The position numbers were made by a program, and so were the translations under genes. Positions 2,607 through 34,342 of a DNA stretch of 34,342 nucleotides are shown here, piece after piece. Position 1 is the stretch's first letter, and each line of letters starts with the position of its first letter. Origin of the DNA: an uncultured Candidatus Saccharibacteria bacterium. GTDB taxonomy: Bacteria > Patescibacteriota > Minisyncoccia > Minisyncoccales > GWA2-46-15. Where the stretch lies: the NCBI GenBank assembly GCA_964437545.1, contig CAYTHH010000001.1, positions 118,036 to 152,377 on the forward strand. Direction: 5' to 3'. The notes beneath the pieces were generated by a model. The model ran no database searches. It saw only the letters and a program-made list of their open reading frames with translations, and was not told the DNA's origin.

Positions 2607-3298
2607 AGCAGAGTTGGCTGAACCGCAAGCTTCTTTTTAAATTCCTTCCAATTCATCTCCTGAGCGGTTGCCAGTTTGCAAATTTCTCTGAATTGGCAGA
2701 ATTGGCATTCCTTGTCCCTAGGATAAGCGGTCAATCTCTTTGGAATAACATTGGCATCAATCTTAGTCCTTAATGATTCCAAATCTCTTAAAAGCTTGTT
2801 AGCTAGAATCCGATCATAAAGAACAATAAATTCTTTTAATTCCTGAGTATCTTTATTTACATAGAGCAGAATTCCTTTCTTGATTCCGAAGAAGTGCAGA
2901 TAAAGCTGGAGCTGAAAAACATTGTCTGGTTTTGGCTGAGATAAGTTCTTGAATAAAAAGCTGTTTATGCTTTTAATATCTAAGACATAAAGCTCGTTTT
3001 CCCAGCTTAAAATCGCATCAGCCCGTCCTGAAATAATTTTCTGAGCTGGAATACTTATCTCTGAAGACCTAACAATTCCTAAGCTGAAAAGCGTGTTTAA
3101 GATAAGGCGGTGAATATAGTCGCCATGGTCAAACATTCTTAAGATTCTGGCCTCCATTTCTTTTTTAGGAGCATTCTTAAATTTAAAAAAAATTGACCGG
3201 GGACACTTGCCACCGTCAGTAATATAAAAGCGGGTTCTGGCTCTTTCTTTTGATCTTTCCCGGTCTAGATAGAACTTGTCAATTAATTCTTTAAGCAT
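2603..3298 (-). CDS. Solo Cas4-like PD-(D/E)XK nuclease with Fe-S cluster cysteines
   Basis: N-terminal GKCPR, GDYIH, ISGRADA, VLDIKS, QLQLY and C-terminal CQFCQFREIC; likely start ATG 3298 (MLKELID). Confidence 0.8.
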   Translation of the reverse strand: MLKELIDKFYLDRERSKERARTRFYITDGGKCPRSIFFKFKNAPKKEMEARILRMFDHGDYIHRLILNTLFSLGIVRSSEISIPAQKIISGRADAILSWENELYVLDIKSINSFLFKNLSQPKPDNVFQLQLYLHFFGIKKGILLYVNKDTQELKEFIVLYDRILANKLLRDLESLRTKIDANVIPKRLTAYPRDKECQFCQFREICKLATAQEMNWKEFKKKLAVQPTLL

Positions 3299-3463: not shown

Positions 3464-3531
3464 AATATAAAAGCGGGTTCTGGCTCTTTCTTTTGATCTT
3501 TCCCGGTCTAGATCATTAATTCTTTAAGCAT
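3464..3531 (-). repeat. Duplicated, frameshifted copy of the 5' end of the cas4-like gene
   Basis: 3464-3513 identical to 3221-3270 (50 bp); 3515-3531 identical to 3282-3298; net 10-bp deletion between. Confidence 0.92.
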
Positions 3532-3720: not shown

Positions 3721-3830
3721 TACTACGAAATACGAATTTTTACTAATATACTAATTTACGAAGTACGAATTTACAATTTCGGCTACGGATAAATTATTTG
3801 TATATTCGTACTGATTCATAATTGGTAGAA
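3721..3830. repeat. TACGAAT/TACTAAT heptamer palindromic element (inverted relative to the 6031 copy)
   Basis: 3724-3774 resembles the reverse complement of 6046-6094. Confidence 0.7.
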
Positions 3831-6030: not shown

Positions 6031-6094
6031 CCTACTAATTACGAATAAATTCGTACTTTGTAGATTAGTATATTAATAAAAATTAGTAATTCGT
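6031..6094. repeat. TACGAAT/TACTAAT heptamer palindromic element
   Basis: Ends CCTACTAATTACGAAT ... ATTAGTAATTCGT shared with the 7644 and 22929 copies. Confidence 0.8.
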
Positions 6095-7643: not shown

Positions 7644-7750
7644 CCTAGCAATTACGAATCAATACGAATATACCAATAGATTTTTTAGGTAAATTCGTGT
7701 AAATTCATGTTTTGTAGATTAGTATATTCGTAAAAAATTAGTAATTCGTA
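7644..7750. repeat. TACGAAT/TACTAAT heptamer palindromic element
   Basis: Shares 23 identical bp (CGAATATACCAATAGATTTTTTA) with 22949-22971 and TTTGTAGATTAGTATATT with 6057-6074. Confidence 0.8.
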
Positions 7751-9714: not shown

Positions 9715-11511
9715 TTATGAATTCTCCAATGCCCCTCGGATCCTTCTGATCCCTTTGGCAACTGCTTCTTCTTTAATAATTTTAAATATTCCTAATTCAG
9801 AAGTATTACTGACATGAGGGCCGCCGCAAACTTCTTTACTAAAATCGCCGATCTTGTAAACTTTAACTTTATCTGCATATTTATCTCTAAAGAAAGCAAC
9901 GGCGCCACTTGCCAAGGCCGCATCTTTATCCATTATTTCAAACGAAACTTCGAGATTTTGTTTTATCTTTGCATTAATCAAATCTTCAACTTCTTTTAAT
10001 TGATCTGGTGTCAATTTCTGATCATGGGAAAAATCAAATCTTAATCTCTCGGCAGTAATATTACTACCCTCTTGTCTTACTTGAGAATTTAAAACTTGTC
10101 TTAAAGCCGCATGTAAAAGATGGGTAGCGGTATGAAGCTTAACCACTTCATGGCTTTGATCTGCCAAACCACCTTTAAACATGCCTGCGGCTGCCTGACG
10201 GGAAATGTCCTGATGTTTTTTCTGCTCTTGCTCAAACTCCTCAAGATTAAACTCCTGTCCCCTTTCTTTAACAATTTCTAAAATCATTTCCAAAGGAAAA
10301 CCAAAGCTTTCGTAAATGTAAAATGCAGTTTTACCGTCAAGTTTTTCAACTTTGTCAATCTCTTTAAAACCGTTTCTTAAAGCTTTGTCAAAACGGTCAG
10401 CTTCTTGCTGGAAAGCAATTAAGATTTCCGCTTCCTTGTCTTTAAGGTCCGGAAAAATATCATCATAGGTTTTACAAACCATTCCAACTAAAGATTTTAG
10501 ATAATAACTTTCTATTAAGTTAAGTCTTCTGGCAAAAAGCATAGCTCTTCTCAATAGTCTTCTTAAAATATATCCCTGGGTTTTGTTTGAAGGCTGAATC
10601 CCCTCTCTGGCGATCATGACCGCCGCCCTGAAATGATCAGCCATAATTCTCATCGCCCGAGAAGTATTTTTATCGCTTAAATAATCTTTTTTAGATAAAG
10701 ATTGGATTATTTCAATCAAGGGCCAAAGCAGGTCAATCTGGAAAATATCAGGATTATTATTAACAGCCGCCACTAATCTTTCTAAGCCGCCGCCGAAGTC
10801 AACATTCTTTTGCAGCAATTCTTTGAAGGAGCCGTCAACTTGTTTTTGATACTGGATAAAAACTGAGTTGCCTATTTCCAGAAACCTGCCGCAATCGCAG
10901 TTAGGATGACAGCTAGAACCATATTTCAAATCATGAGCAACCTGCTTGAATTCATAAAAGATTTCAGAATCCAGACCGCCGATGTCTCCTACGGGCATTG
11001 ACTCAGGCGGACCAGATATTGACCACCAATTCTTTTCAACTCCATAAGAAAAAATTCTTTCTGAAGGAATCCCTAAATTTTTCCAAATAGTCAGAGATTC
11101 TTCATCTTGAGAAATACCAGTTGCCTTATCTCCTTTAAAAACTGAAACCCAAAGCTTGTCTTTTGAAAGACCCAGTTCCTGTGTCAAAAACTCATAAATC
11201 CAAGGCAATTGTTCTGCTTTAAAATAGTCTCCCAAAGACCAATTTCCTAACATTTCAAAAAAGGTAGTGTGACGGTTATCACCAACTTCTTCAATATCCT
11301 GTAATCTTAAAGACGGCTGGGAATTAACAAGTTTTTTGAATCCGGAAGAGTGTGGTTTACCTGAAAAATAAGGTATCAAAGGCTGCATACCACAAGAAGT
11401 AAATAATGTGGTCGGGTCTTCAGTCAACACCAAGGGCGCTGGAGTAATTACCTTATGTCCTCTCTTCTTAAAAAATTCAAAATATTTCTGTCGTACTTCT
11501 CTGGAAGTCAT
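9715..11511 (-). CDS. alaS: Alanine--tRNA ligase, short form lacking C-Ala domain
   Basis: HTTFFEMLGNWS.GDYFK, DFGGGLERL, editing HTATHLL and EVCGGPH; 598 aa. Confidence 0.96.
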   Translation of the reverse strand: MTSREVRQKYFEFFKKRGHKVITPAPLVLTEDPTTLFTSCGMQPLIPYFSGKPHSSGFKKLVNSQPSLRLQDIEEVGDNRHTTFFEMLGNWSLGDYFKAEQLPWIYEFLTQELGLSKDKLWVSVFKGDKATGISQDEESLTIWKNLGIPSERIFSYGVEKNWWSISGPPESMPVGDIGGLDSEIFYEFKQVAHDLKYGSSCHPNCDCGRFLEIGNSVFIQYQKQVDGSFKELLQKNVDFGGGLERLVAAVNNNPDIFQIDLLWPLIEIIQSLSKKDYLSDKNTSRAMRIMADHFRAAVMIAREGIQPSNKTQGYILRRLLRRAMLFARRLNLIESYYLKSLVGMVCKTYDDIFPDLKDKEAEILIAFQQEADRFDKALRNGFKEIDKVEKLDGKTAFYIYESFGFPLEMILEIVKERGQEFNLEEFEQEQKKHQDISRQAAAGMFKGGLADQSHEVVKLHTATHLLHAALRQVLNSQVRQEGSNITAERLRFDFSHDQKLTPDQLKEVEDLINAKIKQNLEVSFEIMDKDAALASGAVAFFRDKYADKVKVYKIGDFSKEVCGGPHVSNTSELGIFKIIKEEAVAKGIRRIRGALENS

Positions 11512-11512
11512 A

Positions 11513-11670
11513 CCAGGTAGTAGAAACTCGACTATTAGGAGAGCGAAGCTCTCTAGTCGATTTGCAAAATTACTTATCTTTTAATTATTTACTTTGCCAG
11601 ATAAATTCAGATATTACAGTAAAGCTTGTCGAGTTTCTACTATCCGAATAACGGATAATAGAATACCTGG
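11513..11670. mobile_element. CCAGGTAG-ended inverted-repeat element at the alaS start codon, flanked by CATA direct repeats
   Basis: TIR CCAGGTAGTAGAAACTCGAC / GTCGAGTTTCTAC-(23 nt)-TACCTGG; CATA at 11509-11512 and 11671-11674; homologous to 24031-24167. Confidence 0.8.
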
Positions 11671-11723
11671 CATATTCCATAATAACAAAAAAACAGCTGT
11701 TTAAAAAGTTGTTTTAAAAAATA

Positions 11724-21674: not shown

Positions 21675-22061
21675 TTACCAGATTTCACAAATTACTTCAC
21701 CGCCTAAATTATTCTTTTTGGCCAAAAACCCCGGCATGACTCCTTTTGAAGTAGAAACAATCACAATTCCTCGGCCGCCCTTGGTTGATTTTATCTTAGC
21801 GGTTGGAAAATAAGTCCTCTGGCTGGGCTTGGAAACTTTCTTGAAGCTGGAAATCATTGGCAAACCATCTTGATACTTTAAATTAACGTCCAGAACTTTT
21901 TTAACGCCTCGACCTCTTTTTTCAACCTTGGAAATATAATCAAACTTTTTCAAAACTTTTAAGATTTCGTGCTTAAAATTAGAATAGCTGAAAGAAACCG
22001 TTTCCTTTGAAACCGCTTGAGCATTTTTTATTTCGTTGAGCATTTGAGCTACCGGGTCCAT
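21675..22061 (-). CDS. rpsH: 30S ribosomal protein S8
   Basis: MDPVAQML, VSKPSQR.Y, STSKGVM, GGEVIC. Confidence 0.97.
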   Translation of the reverse strand: MDPVAQMLNEIKNAQAVSKETVSFSYSNFKHEILKVLKKFDYISKVEKRGRGVKKVLDVNLKYQDGLPMISSFKKVSKPSQRTYFPTAKIKSTKGGRGIVIVSTSKGVMPGFLAKKNNLGGEVICEIW

Positions 22062-22081
22062 ATATTTAGATTATATTATCA

Positions 22082-22267
22082 TTACCAACTGCTTTTTGTA
22101 ACTCCAGGAATTTCTCCGCGACAAGCGGCTTCCCTAAAACAAATCCGGCAAAGACCAAAATCTCCCATATAGCCTCTGGCTCGGCCGCACCTAAAACAAC
22201 GCCTGACAATCCTGGTTGAGAATTTTGGTTTTTTATTTGATTTTGCGATTTGTCCTTCAGTAGCCAT
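22082..22267 (-). CDS. rpsN: 30S ribosomal protein S14, zinc type
   Basis: [22 protein letters not shown]. Confidence 0.98.
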
Positions 22268-22338
22268 GTCTTTTTAAATCTTTAAATATAAGTGTTATGT
22301 CTTTTTAAATCTTTAAATATAAGTGTTATGTCTTTTAA
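22266..22338. repeat. 31-bp tandem repeat, ~2.3 copies
   Basis: ATGTCTTTTTAAATCTTTAAATATAAGTGTT at 22266 and 22297, partial at 22328. Confidence 0.9.
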
Positions 22339-22359
22339 AAAATTATTATTAGGATTATG

Positions 22360-22920
22360 TTATTTAGACTTAATGGGAAATCCTAGTAATTTTAATAATT
22401 TAATCCCCTCTTCTTTGTTTCGGGCTGTAGTTGAAATAACTATTTCCAAACCAAAGATCCTTTTAACGCTTTCGGGAGATACTTCGGGAAAAATAGTCTG
22501 TTCCTTGACGCCGATAGTTAGGTTTCCAGTCTTATCAATGCTGCTTTCTTTAAGCCCTTGAAAGTCTTTGGACCTTGGCAGAGCTATCCAAACCAGCTTA
22601 TCAATAAAATCGTGCATTTTCTTCTTCCTTAGGGTAACTTTAGCGCCAATAGCAATCCCCTTTCTTAATTTAAAGGAAGCAATGGATTTCTTAGAATAGG
22701 TTAGAACTGCTTTCTGTCCGCAAATCATAGTCAAATCTTCTAAAACTATTTGAGAAATCTTTTTCACTTCGTCGCCAGAAGTCCCGGCTACTTGCTTTCC
22801 AAAACCAGTATTAACTACTACCTTGCTGATCATTGGTACCGCCATATCATTCTTATAGCCAAAAGCTGCTTTCATTCCGGGAATTACTTCTTTTTTATAT
22901 CTTTCATTAAAACGCAACAT
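22360..22920 (-). CDS. rplE: 50S ribosomal protein L5
   Basis: KVVVNTG.G, SIASFKLR, KVTLR, LPR..DF.G. Confidence 0.98.
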   Translation of the reverse strand: MLRFNERYKKEVIPGMKAAFGYKNDMAVPMISKVVVNTGFGKQVAGTSGDEVKKISQIVLEDLTMICGQKAVLTYSKKSIASFKLRKGIAIGAKVTLRKKKMHDFIDKLVWIALPRSKDFQGLKESSIDKTGNLTIGVKEQTIFPEVSPESVKRIFGLEIVISTTARNKEEGIKLLKLLGFPIKSK

Positions 22921-22928
22921 GTTTTTTA

Positions 22929-23007
22929 CCTACTAATTACGAATAGGTCGAATATACCAATAGATTTTTTATACAGATTCGTATATTCGTATAAATTAGT
23001 AATTCGT
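22929..23007. repeat. TACGAAT/TACTAAT heptamer palindromic element
   Basis: CCTACTAATTACGAAT ... ATTAGTAATTCGTA ends. Confidence 0.8.
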
Positions 23008-23011
23008 AGAA

Positions 23012-23317
23012 TCATATTTCTTGATGACATTTTTTACAAAACCTAAACTTATCCTTGCCAACAACCTTGTAGCCAATTCTGGCTGGCTGGCCGCATTTCG
23101 GACAAATCAGCTTGGTATTGGCAACGTTAATTGGTATTGAAATTTGAACAGTTTCCCCTTTTTCTCCGCTTTTCTTGGGCTTAACGTGTTTTTTCCTTAA
23201 GTTAAGACCTTCAACTAGAATCTTATTTTCCTTTGGGAATACTTTCAAAACCTTGCCCTTTTTAAGCCTATCTTTCCCAGAAACAACAATAACCGAATCG
23301 CCTTTTTTTATTTTCAT
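23012..23317 (-). CDS. rplX: 50S ribosomal protein L24
   Basis: MKIKKGDSV.V.SGKD, VEGLN, CPKC; start ATG 23317. Confidence 0.97.
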   Translation of the reverse strand: MKIKKGDSVIVVSGKDRLKKGKVLKVFPKENKILVEGLNLRKKHVKPKKSGEKGETVQISIPINVANTKLICPKCGQPARIGYKVVGKDKFRFCKKCHQEI

Positions 23318-23398
23318 AATTTTGAACAAAGTGAGAAATTATGGAATCAAGATTTTATTGAGTAAAACGAAGTAAAATTTATTTTCATAAATCGTGAA

Positions 23399-23770
23399 TT
23401 AAACTATTTCTTTGGCCATGGTAGCAATCTTGTCATAACCTCTTTCTTTCAACTCTCTGGGAATTGGGCCAAAAATTCGACCGCCTTTTGGGTCTTTGGT
23501 TGTTCCGTCCAGAATCACCGCAGCATTTTCGTCAAAACGAATATAGCTGCCATTTTTTCGACGGAAAGATTTCTTTTGCCTAACAATTACTGCTTTAATA
23601 ATATCATGCTTTTTAACAATCCTTCTAGGTTCAGCTTCCTTAACCACAGCCACAATGGTATCGCCAATCTGCCCGGTCCTTCTTCGTGAGCCACCTCTAA
23701 CCTGAATACATTCAATGATTTTAGCACCGCTGTTATCAGCTACTTTTAAATTGGTTAGCAATTGGATCAT
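23399..23770 (-). CDS. rplN: 50S ribosomal protein L14
   Basis: [23 protein letters not shown]; start ATG 23770. Confidence 0.98.
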
Positions 23771-23777
23771 AATTGAA

Positions 23778-24029
23778 TCATAGTTTGGCTTTAGGCGTTT
23801 TTTGAAAAACAACTCTCCATTTTTTGTTTTTAGAAAGAGGCCGGCATTCTTCAATCATAACCGTTTCTCCAGTCTTAGAAAGATTTTTTTCGTCATGAGC
23901 CTGATACCTTTTAAAAACCTTGTACCTGGCTCTGTATTTAGGATAAAACCTTAAGCTTTCAACCTTAACTACGACTGTCTTAGACATCTTATCGGAAACG
24001 ACAATTCCAGTTAATTTTCGCTTTGGCAT
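23778..24029 (-). CDS. rpsQ: 30S ribosomal protein S17
   Basis: [29 protein letters not shown]; start ATG 24029. Confidence 0.97.
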
Positions 24030-24030
24030 A

Positions 24031-24167
24031 CCAGGTAGTAGAAACTCGACTAGTAGCAAAGCTTCTTTGCTATCTAAATCGATGTTTCCTTGGTTAATTG
24101 TATTAATTTACTCTTTTGTGCCAGATAATTCTTATCTTAAAGAAGCGGTCGAGTTTTCACTACCTGG
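24031..24167. mobile_element. CCAGGTAG-ended inverted-repeat element at the rpsQ start codon, flanked by CATA direct repeats
   Basis: 20-bp TIRs (18/20); CATA at 24027-24030 and 24168-24171; 24027-24052 identical to 11509-11534. Confidence 0.8.
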
Positions 24168-24171
24168 CATA

Positions 24172-24372
24172 CTATTGTTTTTTCTGTTTTAAAATAGTAG
24201 CAATTCTAGCAACGTCCTTTTTTAATTCACTAATTTCACGGACATTCTTTAACTTACCCGAAGCAGACAAAAACCGCAAGGAGGTCAGCTTTTCTTTAAG
24301 CTGGTTTAAGCTAACTTTCAGAGTTTCTGGTGAAAGTTGCTGCCATTCTTTTATCTTTAAAGTTGCTTTCAT
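24172..24372 (-). CDS. rpmC: 50S ribosomal protein L29
   Basis: LRF...SGKLKN, KKDVARIATI; synteny. Confidence 0.95.
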   Translation of the reverse strand: MKATLKIKEWQQLSPETLKVSLNQLKEKLTSLRFLSASGKLKNVREISELKKDVARIATILKQKKQ

Positions 24373-24405
24373 GTTAATACTTCATTTAATTTAGACCGAG
24401 TTTAC

Positions 24406-24813
24406 TCAATCTTTTTTCACAAATTTAGTTTTAATCGGCAGTTTATCACCGGCAGTTTTTAAAGCTTTCCTGGCTGCTTCTTCGGTAATGCCATCTATTT
24501 CAAAGATAAGACGGCCTGGCCTAATCGGAAAAACATAACGGTCAACGGCACCCTTACCGCCTCCTAACGGCACTTCTTGTCCCTTGCTAGTCACTGGTTT
24601 ATCTGGAAAAATCCTGATCCACATTTTGCCGCCTTTCTTAAAATATCTTAAAATAGCTCTACGGGCTGCCTCAATTTGGCGGCTGGTAATCCAGGATGTG
24701 CCCATACTCTTTAATCCAAAAGCGCCAAAATTAAGCTCGGTGGCCCTATTTTCAATGCCCCGAGACCTACCCTTGTGCCACTTCCTATGTTTTACTTTTT
24801 TTGGTAGAAGCAT
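24406..24813 (-). CDS. rplP: 50S ribosomal protein L16
   Basis: MLLPKKVKHRK, RQIEAAR, WIRIFPDKP, KLPIKT. Confidence 0.98.
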   Translation of the reverse strand: MLLPKKVKHRKWHKGRSRGIENRATELNFGAFGLKSMGTSWITSRQIEAARRAILRYFKKGGKMWIRIFPDKPVTSKGQEVPLGGGKGAVDRYVFPIRPGRLIFEIDGITEEAARKALKTAGDKLPIKTKFVKKD

Positions 24814-24829
24814 GATTGTTGAACGTTAG

Positions 24830-24947
24830 TGAGATAATCACCCCGCCCTCTATGCCTGTTGAATTTTAGTTAGCAGATAAATTTTCGCTATTATGTCTGG
24901 TTATCCGTTTAACCGTAATTCCACGGGCTTAGAGGGCGGGGTTCTCA
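24830..24947. repeat. GC-rich long inverted-repeat element between rpsC and rplP
   Basis: ACCCCGCCCTCTA (24840-24852) / TAGAGGGCGGGGT (24930-24942), stem extends ~13 bp inward imperfectly. Confidence 0.8.
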
Positions 24948-28516: not shown

Positions 28517-28668
28517 CTAGATACTCCATGTTTTGTATCTAGTATCTTGTATCTAGTATATAAACGACATATCAGAATCGTATACTAAATACAAAATACT
28601 AAATACCAGATACTAATCAGTCTTAATTTCAATAATAAAATTGATTGATCGGGATTTGATTAGTATTA
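28517..28668. repeat. GTATCTA/TAAATAC heptamer-array hairpin plus a second hairpin
   Basis: TGTATCTAGTATCTTGTATCTAGTATA / TATACTAAATACAAAATACTAAATAC; then ATACTAATCA / TGATTAGTAT. Confidence 0.75.
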
Positions 28669-31019: not shown

Positions 31020-31098
31020 TGTATTTAGTATTTAGTAGCTAGTGTTTAGTATTCAGTATTCGTTAATACCAGATACAAGATACTAGATACCAGATACA
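31020..31098. repeat. GTATTTA/TAGATAC heptamer-array hairpin in the tuf leader (inverted relative to the 28517 copy)
   Basis: GTATTTAGTATTTAGTAGCTAGTGTTTAGTATTCAGTATT / AATACCAGATACAAGATACTAGATACCAGATAC. Confidence 0.75.
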
Positions 31099-31123
31099 AA
31101 AGTTATTGAATTATACTTTAATT

Positions 31124-34248: not shown

Positions 34249-34342
34249 AAAAGTAAAATAAAATAAATTTTGATTTCCTCTGAAAAAGAAAAGTAAAATA
34301 AAATAAATTTTGATTTCCTCTGAAAAAGAAAAGTAAAATAAA
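34249..34342. repeat. 40-bp perfect tandem repeat running off the window end
   Basis: AAAAGTAAAATAAAATAAATTTTGATTTCCTCTGAAAAAG at 34249 and 34289, partial at 34329. Confidence 0.9.

Follow-up and report, generated by a model that had tools for sequence, protein, structure and literature searches.

The window analysed here is a stretch of 34,342 nucleotides from an uncultured Candidatus Saccharibacteria bacterium (assembly GCA_964437545.1, contig CAYTHH010000001.1, positions 118,036 to 152,377). Between the genes rpmC and rpsQ of its ribosomal operon lies a 137-bp element with terminal inverted repeats (TIRs), inserted at the start codon of rpsQ. We consider it likely that this is a miniature inverted-repeat transposable element (MITE) belonging to a family of miniature elements in Patescibacteria of the Parcubacteria type. 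The full form of the family would measure ~305-335 bp and consist of two ~20-bp TIRs around a single open reading frame (ORF) for a GIY-YIG nuclease, which we infer to be responsible for mobility, and the elements would capture the start codons of their host genes. A more far-reaching picture, plausible although held with clearly less assurance, is that these are the smallest autonomous DNA transposons seen so far and the first to use a GIY-YIG, SLX1-like nuclease as their only enzyme. The paired ends would be recognised in the shape of a hairpin or cruciform, insertion into start codons would be oriented, the start codon of the nuclease ORF would come from the target duplication and its promoter and ribosome loading from the host, the host gene would be re-initiated ~20 nt past the nuclease stop, and the rpsQ element would be a non-coding parasite or relic of the family.

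The element at the rpsQ start codon

The element occupies positions 24031-24167 of the minus strand, or 145 bp if both copies of a flanking TATG are included, and sits between the rpmC stop and the rpsQ ATG with a 20-bp TIR at each end. Read along the minus strand, the order is rpmC ...CAA TAG, T, ATG, CCAGGTAGTGAAAACTCGAC, 97 nt, GTCGAGTTTCTACTACCTGG, TATG, CCA AAG (rpsQ). The features are the following.

24172..24372, minus strand: rpmC, ribosomal protein L29, 66 aa, the upstream cistron (Pfam L29, E 5.6e-15)
24174-24172, minus strand: rpmC stop codon TAG, followed by T at 24171
24168..24171, minus strand: upstream copy of the TATG duplication; its ATG (24170-24168) marks where rpsQ originally started, coupled to the rpmC stop as TAG-T-ATG, and now opens an upstream ORF (uORF)
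24132..24170, minus strand: uORF with 12 codons and a stop, MPGSENSTASLR; the duplicated ATG and the 5' arm make up codons 1 to 7
24148..24167, minus strand: 5' TIR CCAGGTAGTGAAAACTCGAC, an arm of the 'GTGAAAA' type, from pattern match and pairing with the 3' arm
24051..24147, minus strand: interior of 97 nt, AT-rich and non-coding, from sequence reading, fold and consensus motif
24128-24119, minus strand: interior motif TTATCTGGCA, resembling the outer 3' arm and complementary to the outer 5' arm
24072-24054, minus strand: interior hairpin TAGCAAAG-AAG-CTTTGCTA, from sequence and fold
24031..24050, minus strand: 3' TIR GTCGAGTTTCTACTACCTGG, an arm of the 'GTAGAAA' type, from pattern match and fold
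24027..24030, minus strand: downstream copy of the TATG duplication; its ATG (24029-24027) is the working rpsQ start codon
23778..24029, minus strand: rpsQ, ribosomal protein S17, 83 aa (MPKRKL...; Pfam Ribosomal_S17, E 4.9e-27), single copy in the genome

An earlier note, made from the letters of the window, had described a 137-bp TIR element at the rpsQ start with a TATG duplication, whose first ATG opens a 12-codon uORF and whose long stem places the two ATGs side by side. The sequence confirms the element, with L29 and S17 recognised by Pfam on either side, and the uORF (24170-24132), which is the sole ORF within it. The third point is borne out by RNA folding: the region reaches -51 kcal/mol (z = -7.0; none of 200 shuffles was equally stable), and the stem extends across both UAUGs through A-U and G.U pairs, so that the two AUGs come to lie adjacent at its base. 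Relative to the 5' arm, the 3' arm carries a GA/AG swap at arm positions 10-11, which leaves a G.U and an A.C in the stem. The interior consensus of 84 copies contains the motif acTAtcTGG, and the arm pattern matches four times in the window, with 0.01 matches expected from shuffles.

Among the DNA contigs from four sequencing runs, one spans 22307-24700 without differences and so shows the filled site. None of the contig joints listed from these runs skips the whole element; contigs cannot reveal rare empty alleles. With sides no longer than 23-24 nt, the joints linking 24050/24052 or 115xx to 24148 represent other copies that share the arms. Beside the element gene starts are easily misplaced, as illustrated by a 93-aa ORF with a TTG start that was called over rpsQ. 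Rfam was searched without a match, with the gathering score as cut-off for the whole window and E<=10 for 23950-24250. A self-splicing intron, an IStron or a self-cleaving ribozyme was rejected, since Rfam recognises no ribozyme core here; an undescribed ribozyme is possible.

Copies in the source genome and empty sites in relatives

The source genome (G000; 524 kb in 15 contigs, 37% G+C, 95.7% complete) holds nine copies and one fragment. Exact and fuzzy arm scans located eight loci, to which a profile search added a decayed copy on contig C8 and the fragment at C1:6021. Seven of the nine copies abut gene starts, always with the 'GTGAAAA' arm upstream, and their hosts are S17, AlaRS, TrmD, a MurA-type enzyme, an S1-domain protein, a 62-aa basic protein and the gene beginning MLVKVSSAANLG. 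Pfam confirms the first five, and all six host genes that were checked by tblastn are single copy. The 62-aa protein, which we take from its N-terminus to be L28-like, has no Pfam hit at 1e-5. The two remaining copies lie at gene 3' ends: an RNase Y-like ORF ends at one of them, and the second, with TTTA on both sides, separates an ORF end from a GreA-like gene. Gene names read from N-termini only, namely ComM/YifB-like, GreA, RNase Y, SmpB, L32, DnaB and L24, are presumptive. Overall the copies are 56-89% identical, with variable interiors and nearly invariant arms. A second copy within the window is

11509..11674, minus strand: alaS-start copy, with TATG at 11674-11671, a 158-bp element at 11670-11513, and TATG at 11512-11509 leading into the alaS ATG

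It is 158 bp long because a 21-nt hairpin-forming insert interrupts its 5' arm. As had been noticed from the letters, the rpsQ and alaS copies share 26 nt exactly, which the repeat listing places at the gene-proximal end, and their interiors are alike in that both contain the motif TGCCAGATAA.

Sites without the element were found in close relatives at all five positions checked. In the closest relative (G003, 88-90% identical here) the rpmC-rpsQ junction is empty and contains a single CATG (...AACAATAGCATGCCAAAG); it reads ...AACAATAG C ATG CCAAAG, that is, TAG-C-ATG-CCAAAG. The four further sites of the source genome that are empty in relatives are those at trmD (G003, G006), alaS (G003), the 62-aa gene (G003, with a single TATG) and murA (G001, G004, G006). 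Both the single-xATG empty site that had been predicted and the proposal that removing the element and one TATG restores a coupled junction are thereby upheld, the G003 junction reading TAG-C-ATG. The S1 site is filled in G006 as well, where the copy is 64% identical, as against 83% for the gene.

Because G003 holds a single CATG at the same junction, the rpsQ copy is an insertion at T|ATG of rpsQ that took place after the split of the two genomes and has kept both TATGs and both arms. The TIRs, the 4-bp duplication, the nine copies and the empty sites in relatives bear out the MITE-like mobile element originally suspected. Every MITE hallmark tested is present: TIRs, target duplication, dispersed copies with presence and absence, and a coding partner, found elsewhere.

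Some individual loci add detail. The decayed MITE at G000:C8:20254-20381 and a full-length nuclease element in another genome (L162, G044:C6) occupy the same gene start (MLVKVSSAANLG.../MLIKVQSAANSG...) with nearly identical upstream flanks. The two genomes belong to different families; the shared site may reflect either a target that is hit repeatedly or an insertion of old date. At G000:C3:409-505 and in L164 (G136:C1) an element lies at the extreme 3' end of the RNase Y-like ORF, and its arm supplies the last residues and the stop (...CCAGG TAG). A decayed arm pair (CCTGGTAGTGAAAATTCGAA ... CTACTACCGGG) stands at G000:C1:6021-6110 in a G+C-rich stretch away from gene starts.

Family spread, target duplication and start-codon preference

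Of 61 genomes in the order to which the source genome belongs, 15 carry the 3' arm (<=2 mismatches). These 15 cover several families, and the arm is mostly followed by TATG and an ORF in them. A scan of public metagenome-assembled genomes (MAGs), with one genome per species and a 16-nt core, gave at least 117 loci and at least 124 matches. Among the matches listed, 84 of 124 have a partner 5' arm. The other 40 have no paired 5' arm within 260 nt and are mostly chance hits in unrelated phyla, but 10-12 of them are real 3' arms, five of which belong to full-length units. The host MAGs are labelled Parcubacteria or Patescibacteria (Harrison-, Portnoy-, Yanofsky-, Jorgensen-, Nealson- and Liptonbacteria), and the few other labels we consider unreliable. 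Four matches to the 3' arm pattern on viral contigs were rejected as chance hits, as none has a partner arm by eye.

For a closer description we used a non-redundant set of 120 copies among the matches listed, in which identical duplicates of overlapping loci were merged, copies <=12 nt from a locus end were dropped and arms were paired over a 480-nt span. Their sizes fall into distinct groups of 60-79 bp (27 copies), 102-155 bp (86), 200 bp (1) and 313-327 bp (6). As to the flanks, 69 of the 120 carry the same 4 bp on both sides, and in 93 at least three of the four positions agree. TATG/TATG accounts for 43 pairs, and 22 identical pairs are non-ATG, including CATA, TATA, AAAA, CTTG, TAAG, AAAG, CCTG, TAAA, TGAA, CACG and TATT. 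Since identical flanks extend to these 22 non-ATG pairs, the duplication is a genuine 4-bp target duplication, with a YATR-like preference.

With respect to genes, 70 copies stand at an ORF start in forward orientation, 11 in reverse, one in both and 38 at neither; the 'GTGAAAA' arm is upstream in 70 of the 82 start-associated copies. Among the 63 copies whose right flank is TATG, 57 are at an ORF start, where a fraction of ~0.33 would be expected (binomial p ~2e-21). This expectation supposes that all non-coding and start TATG sites are equally tolerated (232 of the 2948 TATG sites in G000 are ORF starts, 33% of the sites outside coding sequence); the figure calls for caution, since a single genome supplies the background and the copies, being related, lack phylogenetic independence. 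The ATG target specificity put forward in the earlier note thus survives as a strong preference for (T)ATG at gene starts, yet not as an absolute rule. The expectation that every copy would be flanked by TATG at a start fails, given the 38 copies off starts and the 22 identical non-ATG duplications.

Bases next to the insertion site are biased as well: T at -1 in ~80% (background 40%), C and G at +4 in 31% each (background C 12%), and C at +5 in 36%. These bases resemble TATG|CC, the junction at the left end of the element itself. As such a preference would lead one to expect, elements abut one another via a common TATG or TACG (L074, L101, L115, L164).

The two arms of a copy vary together. 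Across the 120 copies, position 1 is C/C in 100 and T/T in 10, position 3 is A/A in 79, C/C in 16 and G/G in 8, position 15 is T/T in 81 and C/C in 37, and position 20 is C/C in 81, T/T in 29 and A/A in 5. As both arms of a copy carry the same variants, pairing between them has been maintained. The GA/AG swap is found in 120 of 120, a figure that is built into the rule by which the family was selected and is no evidence of conservation; other repeat subfamilies show an irregularity at the same place of the stem, ~10 nt from the tip. Only 44 of 83 copies form a hairpin (free energy <= -6) directly behind the 5' arm; this hairpin is a subfamily trait, not a family feature. Five copies (L065, L066, L075, L089, L148) have a variant left end, in which a G+C palindrome (GCCTGCCGGCAGGC...) joined to GGGAAAAYTCGA takes the place of the outer 5' arm.

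Full-length units encode a GIY-YIG nuclease

The coding partner emerged from a look over 4 kb upstream of 12 unpaired arms. Five seemingly unpaired arms have a partner ~300 nt away, with a single ORF in between and the same TATG flanks. This ORF encodes a GIY-YIG domain protein of ~85-100 aa (PF01541, E 2.3e-17). Among solved structures the protein is nearest to BH0048 and EF2693, both of UPF0213, and to the SLX1 nuclease domain (profile E 3.4e-7 to 6e-3). In 36 nuclease sequences of ~75% identity, a Tyr, a Tyr-x-Gly, an Arg, a His-Asn and a Glu are invariant or nearly so, and we take these residues to correspond to the GIY-YIG catalytic motif. Of 301 genomes in the order, 151 encode homologues, and many of these encode more than one. 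In public data the homologues form more than 1263 clusters at 90% identity, where they go by the names 'putative endonuclease' and 'GIY-YIG nuclease family protein', and in some cases 'excinuclease ABC subunit C'.

Flanking inverted repeats that enclose 298-335 bp were found at 21 of 36 GIY-YIG loci. They fall into at least six subfamilies: CCAGGTAGTG.., CCC(C/A)GTAGTAG.., CCCCGTAGAG.., CCC(A/C)GTAATAC.., CCCCGTACCAC.. and CCCCCACACC... Roughly in this order the identity of the nuclease to the query drops from 80% to ~50%, so that divergence of the repeats tracks divergence of the nuclease. An ORF start stands at the 3' boundary in 15 of the 21 by script, and L162, L163 and L182 add a TATG and an ORF by eye.

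One genome (G025) contains two stretches of 312 bp that are 100% identical (the element of ~303 bp and flanking ATGAA/TGAA) at two different gene starts. The duplication is in the register TGAA on both sides, and a GTG start is restored by the element's final G. One site we take to be the rplN-rplX junction; the other is the start of a membrane protein gene. Identical units at two loci are direct evidence that a coding unit, bounded exactly by the repeats, has recently moved into start codons.

Start-codon capture

In every start-associated full-length unit that was seen, the nuclease ORF has the same orientation as the host gene. The ORF is often in frame with the duplicated ATG, in which case the 5' repeat encodes the N-terminus of the nuclease. 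Among the best 120 homologue clusters, 60 begin with an MPGSENS-like sequence, that is, the duplicated ATG followed by the 5' repeat in frame, and 35 begin at an internal Met; one third of such starts would arise by chance, and gene callers favour long ORFs. The peptide of the uORF at rpsQ, MPGSENS..., equals the nuclease N-terminus of full-length relatives. In the subfamilies of L173, L184 and L221 the flanking ATG is the only in-frame ATG, and these elements therefore lack a start codon of their own.

At the other end, the nuclease stop lies at the inner edge of the 3' repeat, 9-28 nt before the restored host ATG. The distance is given for 15 of 18 units and amounts to 20-22 nt in nine of them; three values below 16 nt are mis-detections at GTG. 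The layout of a full-length unit accordingly reads as host promoter and start codon, nuclease, stop, ~20 nt, and restored host ATG.

From these observations a mechanism can be proposed in which the GIY-YIG nuclease is responsible for mobility. What the enzyme recognises would be the hairpin or cruciform formed by the paired repeats, its base being the element boundary and the irregularity ~10 nt from the tip a conserved mark; this is suggested by the kinship with SLX1, the maintained pairing of the arms and the conserved mid-stem irregularity. Insertion with the 4-bp duplication doubles the host ATG, so that one copy stands before the host ORF and the other before the 5' repeat; the element would take over the transcription and translation start signals of the host. 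Movement of the rpsQ copy would depend on a nuclease of the family supplied in trans.

How the host gene may be translated

The host AUG is buried in a stem of -51 kcal/mol and the hosts are single-copy core genes; a rescue mechanism is therefore needed. The possibility that we favour, though only tentatively, is that translational coupling keeps the host gene translated. After rpmC, ribosomes would start again at the upstream AUG, and their passage through the 5' arm along the uORF would hold the stem open. They would terminate within the element or at its end, and the downstream AUG would then be used by re-initiation or by a fresh ribosome. In full-length units, coupling would be built in through the position of the stop codon. 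Shine-Dalgarno motifs are scarce, both at the starts of long ORFs in the source genome (33 of 441) and at insertion sites (3 of 55).

The MITEs speak less clearly for coupling. Their uORFs stop 8 to 52 codons in, and a stop 30 nt or less before the host ATG is seen in only 5 of 46, close to the figure for another frame; three of the 46 read through. As the stop is unpositioned, the coupling model is weaker for MITEs.

The host gene could also be rescued at the RNA level, the stem being cut, for example by RNase III, or removed so that the AUG is freed. This is compatible with a MITE and competes only with coupling; we judge it rather unlikely, although it is the strongest of the alternatives considered here. 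RNase III cuts transcribed Correia elements of Neisseria and acts on intervening sequences in rRNA, and its gene (rnc) is present in the source genome. The 20-bp stem, continued over both UAUGs to -51 kcal/mol, and the conserved tandem G.U/A.C irregularity in its middle would suit such processing. Bacteria of the candidate phyla radiation (CPR) have rRNA genes with non-intron insertions that encode GIY-YIG proteins as well as short ones without an ORF (PMC11270868). Against rescue at the RNA level stand the lack of an Rfam match, at gathering score or at E<=10, and the consequences of a cut, which within the stem would leave part of the 3' arm as a leader and would separate rpsQ from the operon transcript.

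Two further ideas about expression were rejected. An internal outward promoter finds no support, as TANNNT hexamers have no preferred distance from the 3' end in 83 copies and the 3' arm has no TANNNT at -12..-7. Leaderless genes are not a special target either: a TANNNT ending at -9..-6 is present at 15 of 55 insertion sites, compared with 119 of 441 ORF starts in G000 for one ending at -9..-5, which is no enrichment. As a separate observation, TANNNT hexamers in G000 are most frequent where their final base falls at -7/-8 relative to the ATG (40 and 29, against a background of ~16), which suggests that a subset of its genes is leaderless.

What moves the element

Several points weigh against the proposed family and its nuclease as the mobility enzyme. 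No nuclease gene with these repeats was found in the source genome, which is 95.7% complete; the only homologue there has 37% identity, lies beside a tRNA gene and is without repeats. Likewise, no nuclease with matching repeats appeared in 17 of 24 GIY-YIG matches inspected from five relatives, four of them of the same genus. With no cognate nuclease in the source genome or in the inspected relatives, the rpsQ copy may no longer be mobile; it would be either a relic or moved in trans. The MITE interior shows no similarity to the nuclease ORF, and simple internal deletion is therefore not established as the origin of the MITEs. As to start codons, 38 of the 120 copies lie away from them and 11 stand in the opposite orientation. 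In terms of chemistry, a 4-bp duplication is a classical mark of DDE transposases, and we know of no GIY-YIG enzyme that performs strand transfer.

The repeats could alternatively be regarded as the ends of a conventional transposon, moved by a transposase of the DDE type or another type, with the GIY-YIG ORF as mere cargo. The combination of TIRs with a 4-bp duplication is typical of DDE insertion sequences, and both the MITEs without cognate nuclease in G000 and the MITE interior unrelated to the nuclease ORF would be in line with it. We nevertheless find this improbable. In the 120 copies, paired over the 480-nt span, the longest unit with these arms measures 327 bp, and the 4-kb look at the 12 unpaired arms gave only partners at ~300 bp. 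In a limited sample of five element-bearing genomes, DDE_Tnp_1 (PF01609) and DDE_3 (PF13358) were found in none and rve (PF00665) in one. In each of at least six repeat subfamilies the repeats surround a GIY-YIG ORF and leave hardly any room for further sequence, these subfamilies pair tightly with nuclease clades, and two identical nuclease units exist at two loci of G025.

The nuclease might instead be a homing endonuclease that spreads by double-strand-break repair (gene conversion) and not by transposition. GIY-YIG is a classical homing-endonuclease fold, and the same sites are filled in distant genomes, namely the MLVKVSSAANLG gene start (G000, G044) and the RNase Y-like 3' end (G000, G136). 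Dozens of unrelated host genes share only ~4-6 nt, T-ATG-(C/G)-C, though; target duplications and inverted repeats are not features of homing, and the protein is a bare catalytic domain of ~85 aa without a DNA-binding extension, all of which makes homing very unlikely.

Marginally less probable still is movement of the hairpin elements as single-stranded DNA by an HUH Y1 transposase of the IS200/IS605 or RAYT-like type, in the manner of REPINs. Hairpin-forming ends, a conserved irregularity and a tetranucleotide target resemble the logic of IS200/IS605, and Y1_Tnp homologues occur in four of five element-bearing genomes, including G000. The clear target duplications argue against this, as to our knowledge the IS200/IS605 family makes none. 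Moreover, the Y1_Tnp gene of G000 is flanked by a hairpin of its own, the unrelated TTGCTTGGCCSGGCCAAGCAA, with four copies that are all on contig C8, and G025, 94% complete and carrier of the two identical nuclease units, has no Y1_Tnp match.

Finally, a host regulatory RNA leader conserved before genes would account for a strong conserved stem beside start codons in fixed orientation, but it is practically excluded because the site is empty in close relatives at 5/5 sites checked, while flank duplications also at non-genic sites, functionally unrelated host genes and variable interiors speak against it too.

The Y1_Tnp locus of the source genome is worth recording in its own right. A Y1_Tnp ORF of ~240 aa (IS200/RAYT-like) lies at G000:C8:~22058-22834, with TTGCTTGGCCSGGCCAAGCAA palindromes at C8:18179, 22030, 22795 and 23553; it appears to form a separate REP/RAYT-like system, unrelated in sequence to the family of the rpsQ element.

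Neighbouring repeats and related elements

A separate small element is found in the same ribosomal operon.

24840..24942, minus strand: 103-bp element with perfect 13-bp TIRs ACCCCGCCCTCTA...TAGAGGGCGGGGT, between rpsC and rplP, 27 nt before the rplP ATG

In the relative G006 (L207) a GIY-YIG ORF is flanked by the first 12 nt of the ACCCCGCCCTCTA-type repeat, and the 103-bp element is probably a MITE of a sister family. A further group of small GIY-YIG ORFs within the order adjoins tRNA genes, with a partial tRNA duplicate on the opposite side (L192, L194-L197, L200 and L209 in G001, G002, G004 and G006, and G000:C9:4403-4633); these look like a different type of element that targets tRNA genes.

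The window also contains intergenic repeats of two other families, at 3725-3773 / 6046-6094 / 7698-7736 / 22977-23015 and at 28531-28616 / 31021-31101. One of the two is rich in ATTCGTA/TACGAAT (49-nt arms, 90% complementary), and one consists of ATACTAGATAC-like units. Other repeats in the window are a perfect 50-nt direct repeat (3221-3270 / 3464-3513, 243 nt apart), a 31-nt tandem repeat of three units (22261-22350) and, near its end, a perfect 40-nt tandem duplication (34249-34328).

Implications

The existence of miniature GIY-YIG elements that capture start codons is well supported by the sequences, from which we infer the enzymology. If the nuclease is indeed the mobility enzyme, it would add a new enzyme class to the chemistries of transposases, and the elements would set a new lower size limit for autonomous mobile elements. 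Start-codon capture would let a selfish gene without expression signals of its own survive in streamlined genomes of ~0.5 Mb while leaving essential genes such as those for S17, AlaRS, MurA, TrmD and S1 functional. For annotation, it matters that the nuclease ORFs are vaguely named and that starts beside the elements are easily miscalled. An AUG at the foot of a very stable stem also offers a test case for ribosome initiation in the Shine-Dalgarno-poor Patescibacteria.

Comparison with known systems

A parallel in overall build is provided by the Correia elements of Neisseria, which measure ~100-160 bp, have long TIRs and a TA duplication, occur in many dispersed copies and depend on a DDE transposase as partner. 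The elements described here are similar in size, long TIRs, short duplication, dispersed copies, co-transcription with neighbouring genes and a stem that may be a substrate of RNase III. They differ in that the duplication is of 4 bp (mostly TATG) and not TA, in that start codons are entered in one orientation, and in that the partner is of the GIY-YIG and not the DDE type. With IS200/IS605 and the REPIN/RAYT systems they have in common a very small size, hairpin ends with an irregularity, a target at the tetranucleotide level and a fixed orientation to that target, whereas a duplication (69/120), true TIRs that pair with each other and GIY-YIG in place of HUH-Y1 set them apart.

Among nucleases, the GIY-YIG homing genes, such as I-TevI and the Seg proteins of phage T4, are free-standing or borne by introns. 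They likewise represent a selfish nuclease gene wedged between host genes and making use of host signals, but the catalytic domain of ~85 aa found here is nearest to UPF0213/SLX1 and not to I-TevI, and it comes with TIRs, a duplication and many unrelated host genes. UPF0213 (YhbQ/BH0048/EF2693) and SLX1 are the closest sequence relatives with solved structures. SLX1 is a structure-specific endonuclease that cuts branched and stem-loop DNA, which would fit recognition of paired repeats. Unlike the proteins described here, whose activity is predicted from sequence, neither has been described within mobile elements.

The way in which the inserts are tolerated has parallels, too. IStrons, the Rickettsia palindromic elements, the bypass of T4 gene 60 and the byps of yeast mitochondria are all inserts that are tolerated because expression reads around or through them. 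The rpsQ element is likewise a mobile insert that could be harmless in this sense; the differences are that it has no ribozyme match, that it stands before the ORF and that its harmlessness would come from duplication of the start codon.

Within the same bacterial group, rRNA genes of CPR bacteria contain insertions that encode GIY-YIG proteins, belong to neither intron class (group I or group II) and apparently do not spread by homing; their sites are scattered and poorly conserved, and many are short (<200 bp) and without an ORF (PMC11270868). They share with our elements the host group and the GIY-YIG ORFs in non-intron insertions, yet they concern rRNA genes, and inverted repeats, duplications and start-codon sites are not described in the accessible part of that paper. 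Our literature search returned no description of a GIY-YIG transposon with inverted repeats, of MITEs in CPR bacteria or of insertion into start codons. With a GIY-YIG enzyme, a coding form of ~310 bp and a duplicated host start codon that is put to use, the family differs from the described insertion-sequence families and is apparently a new one.

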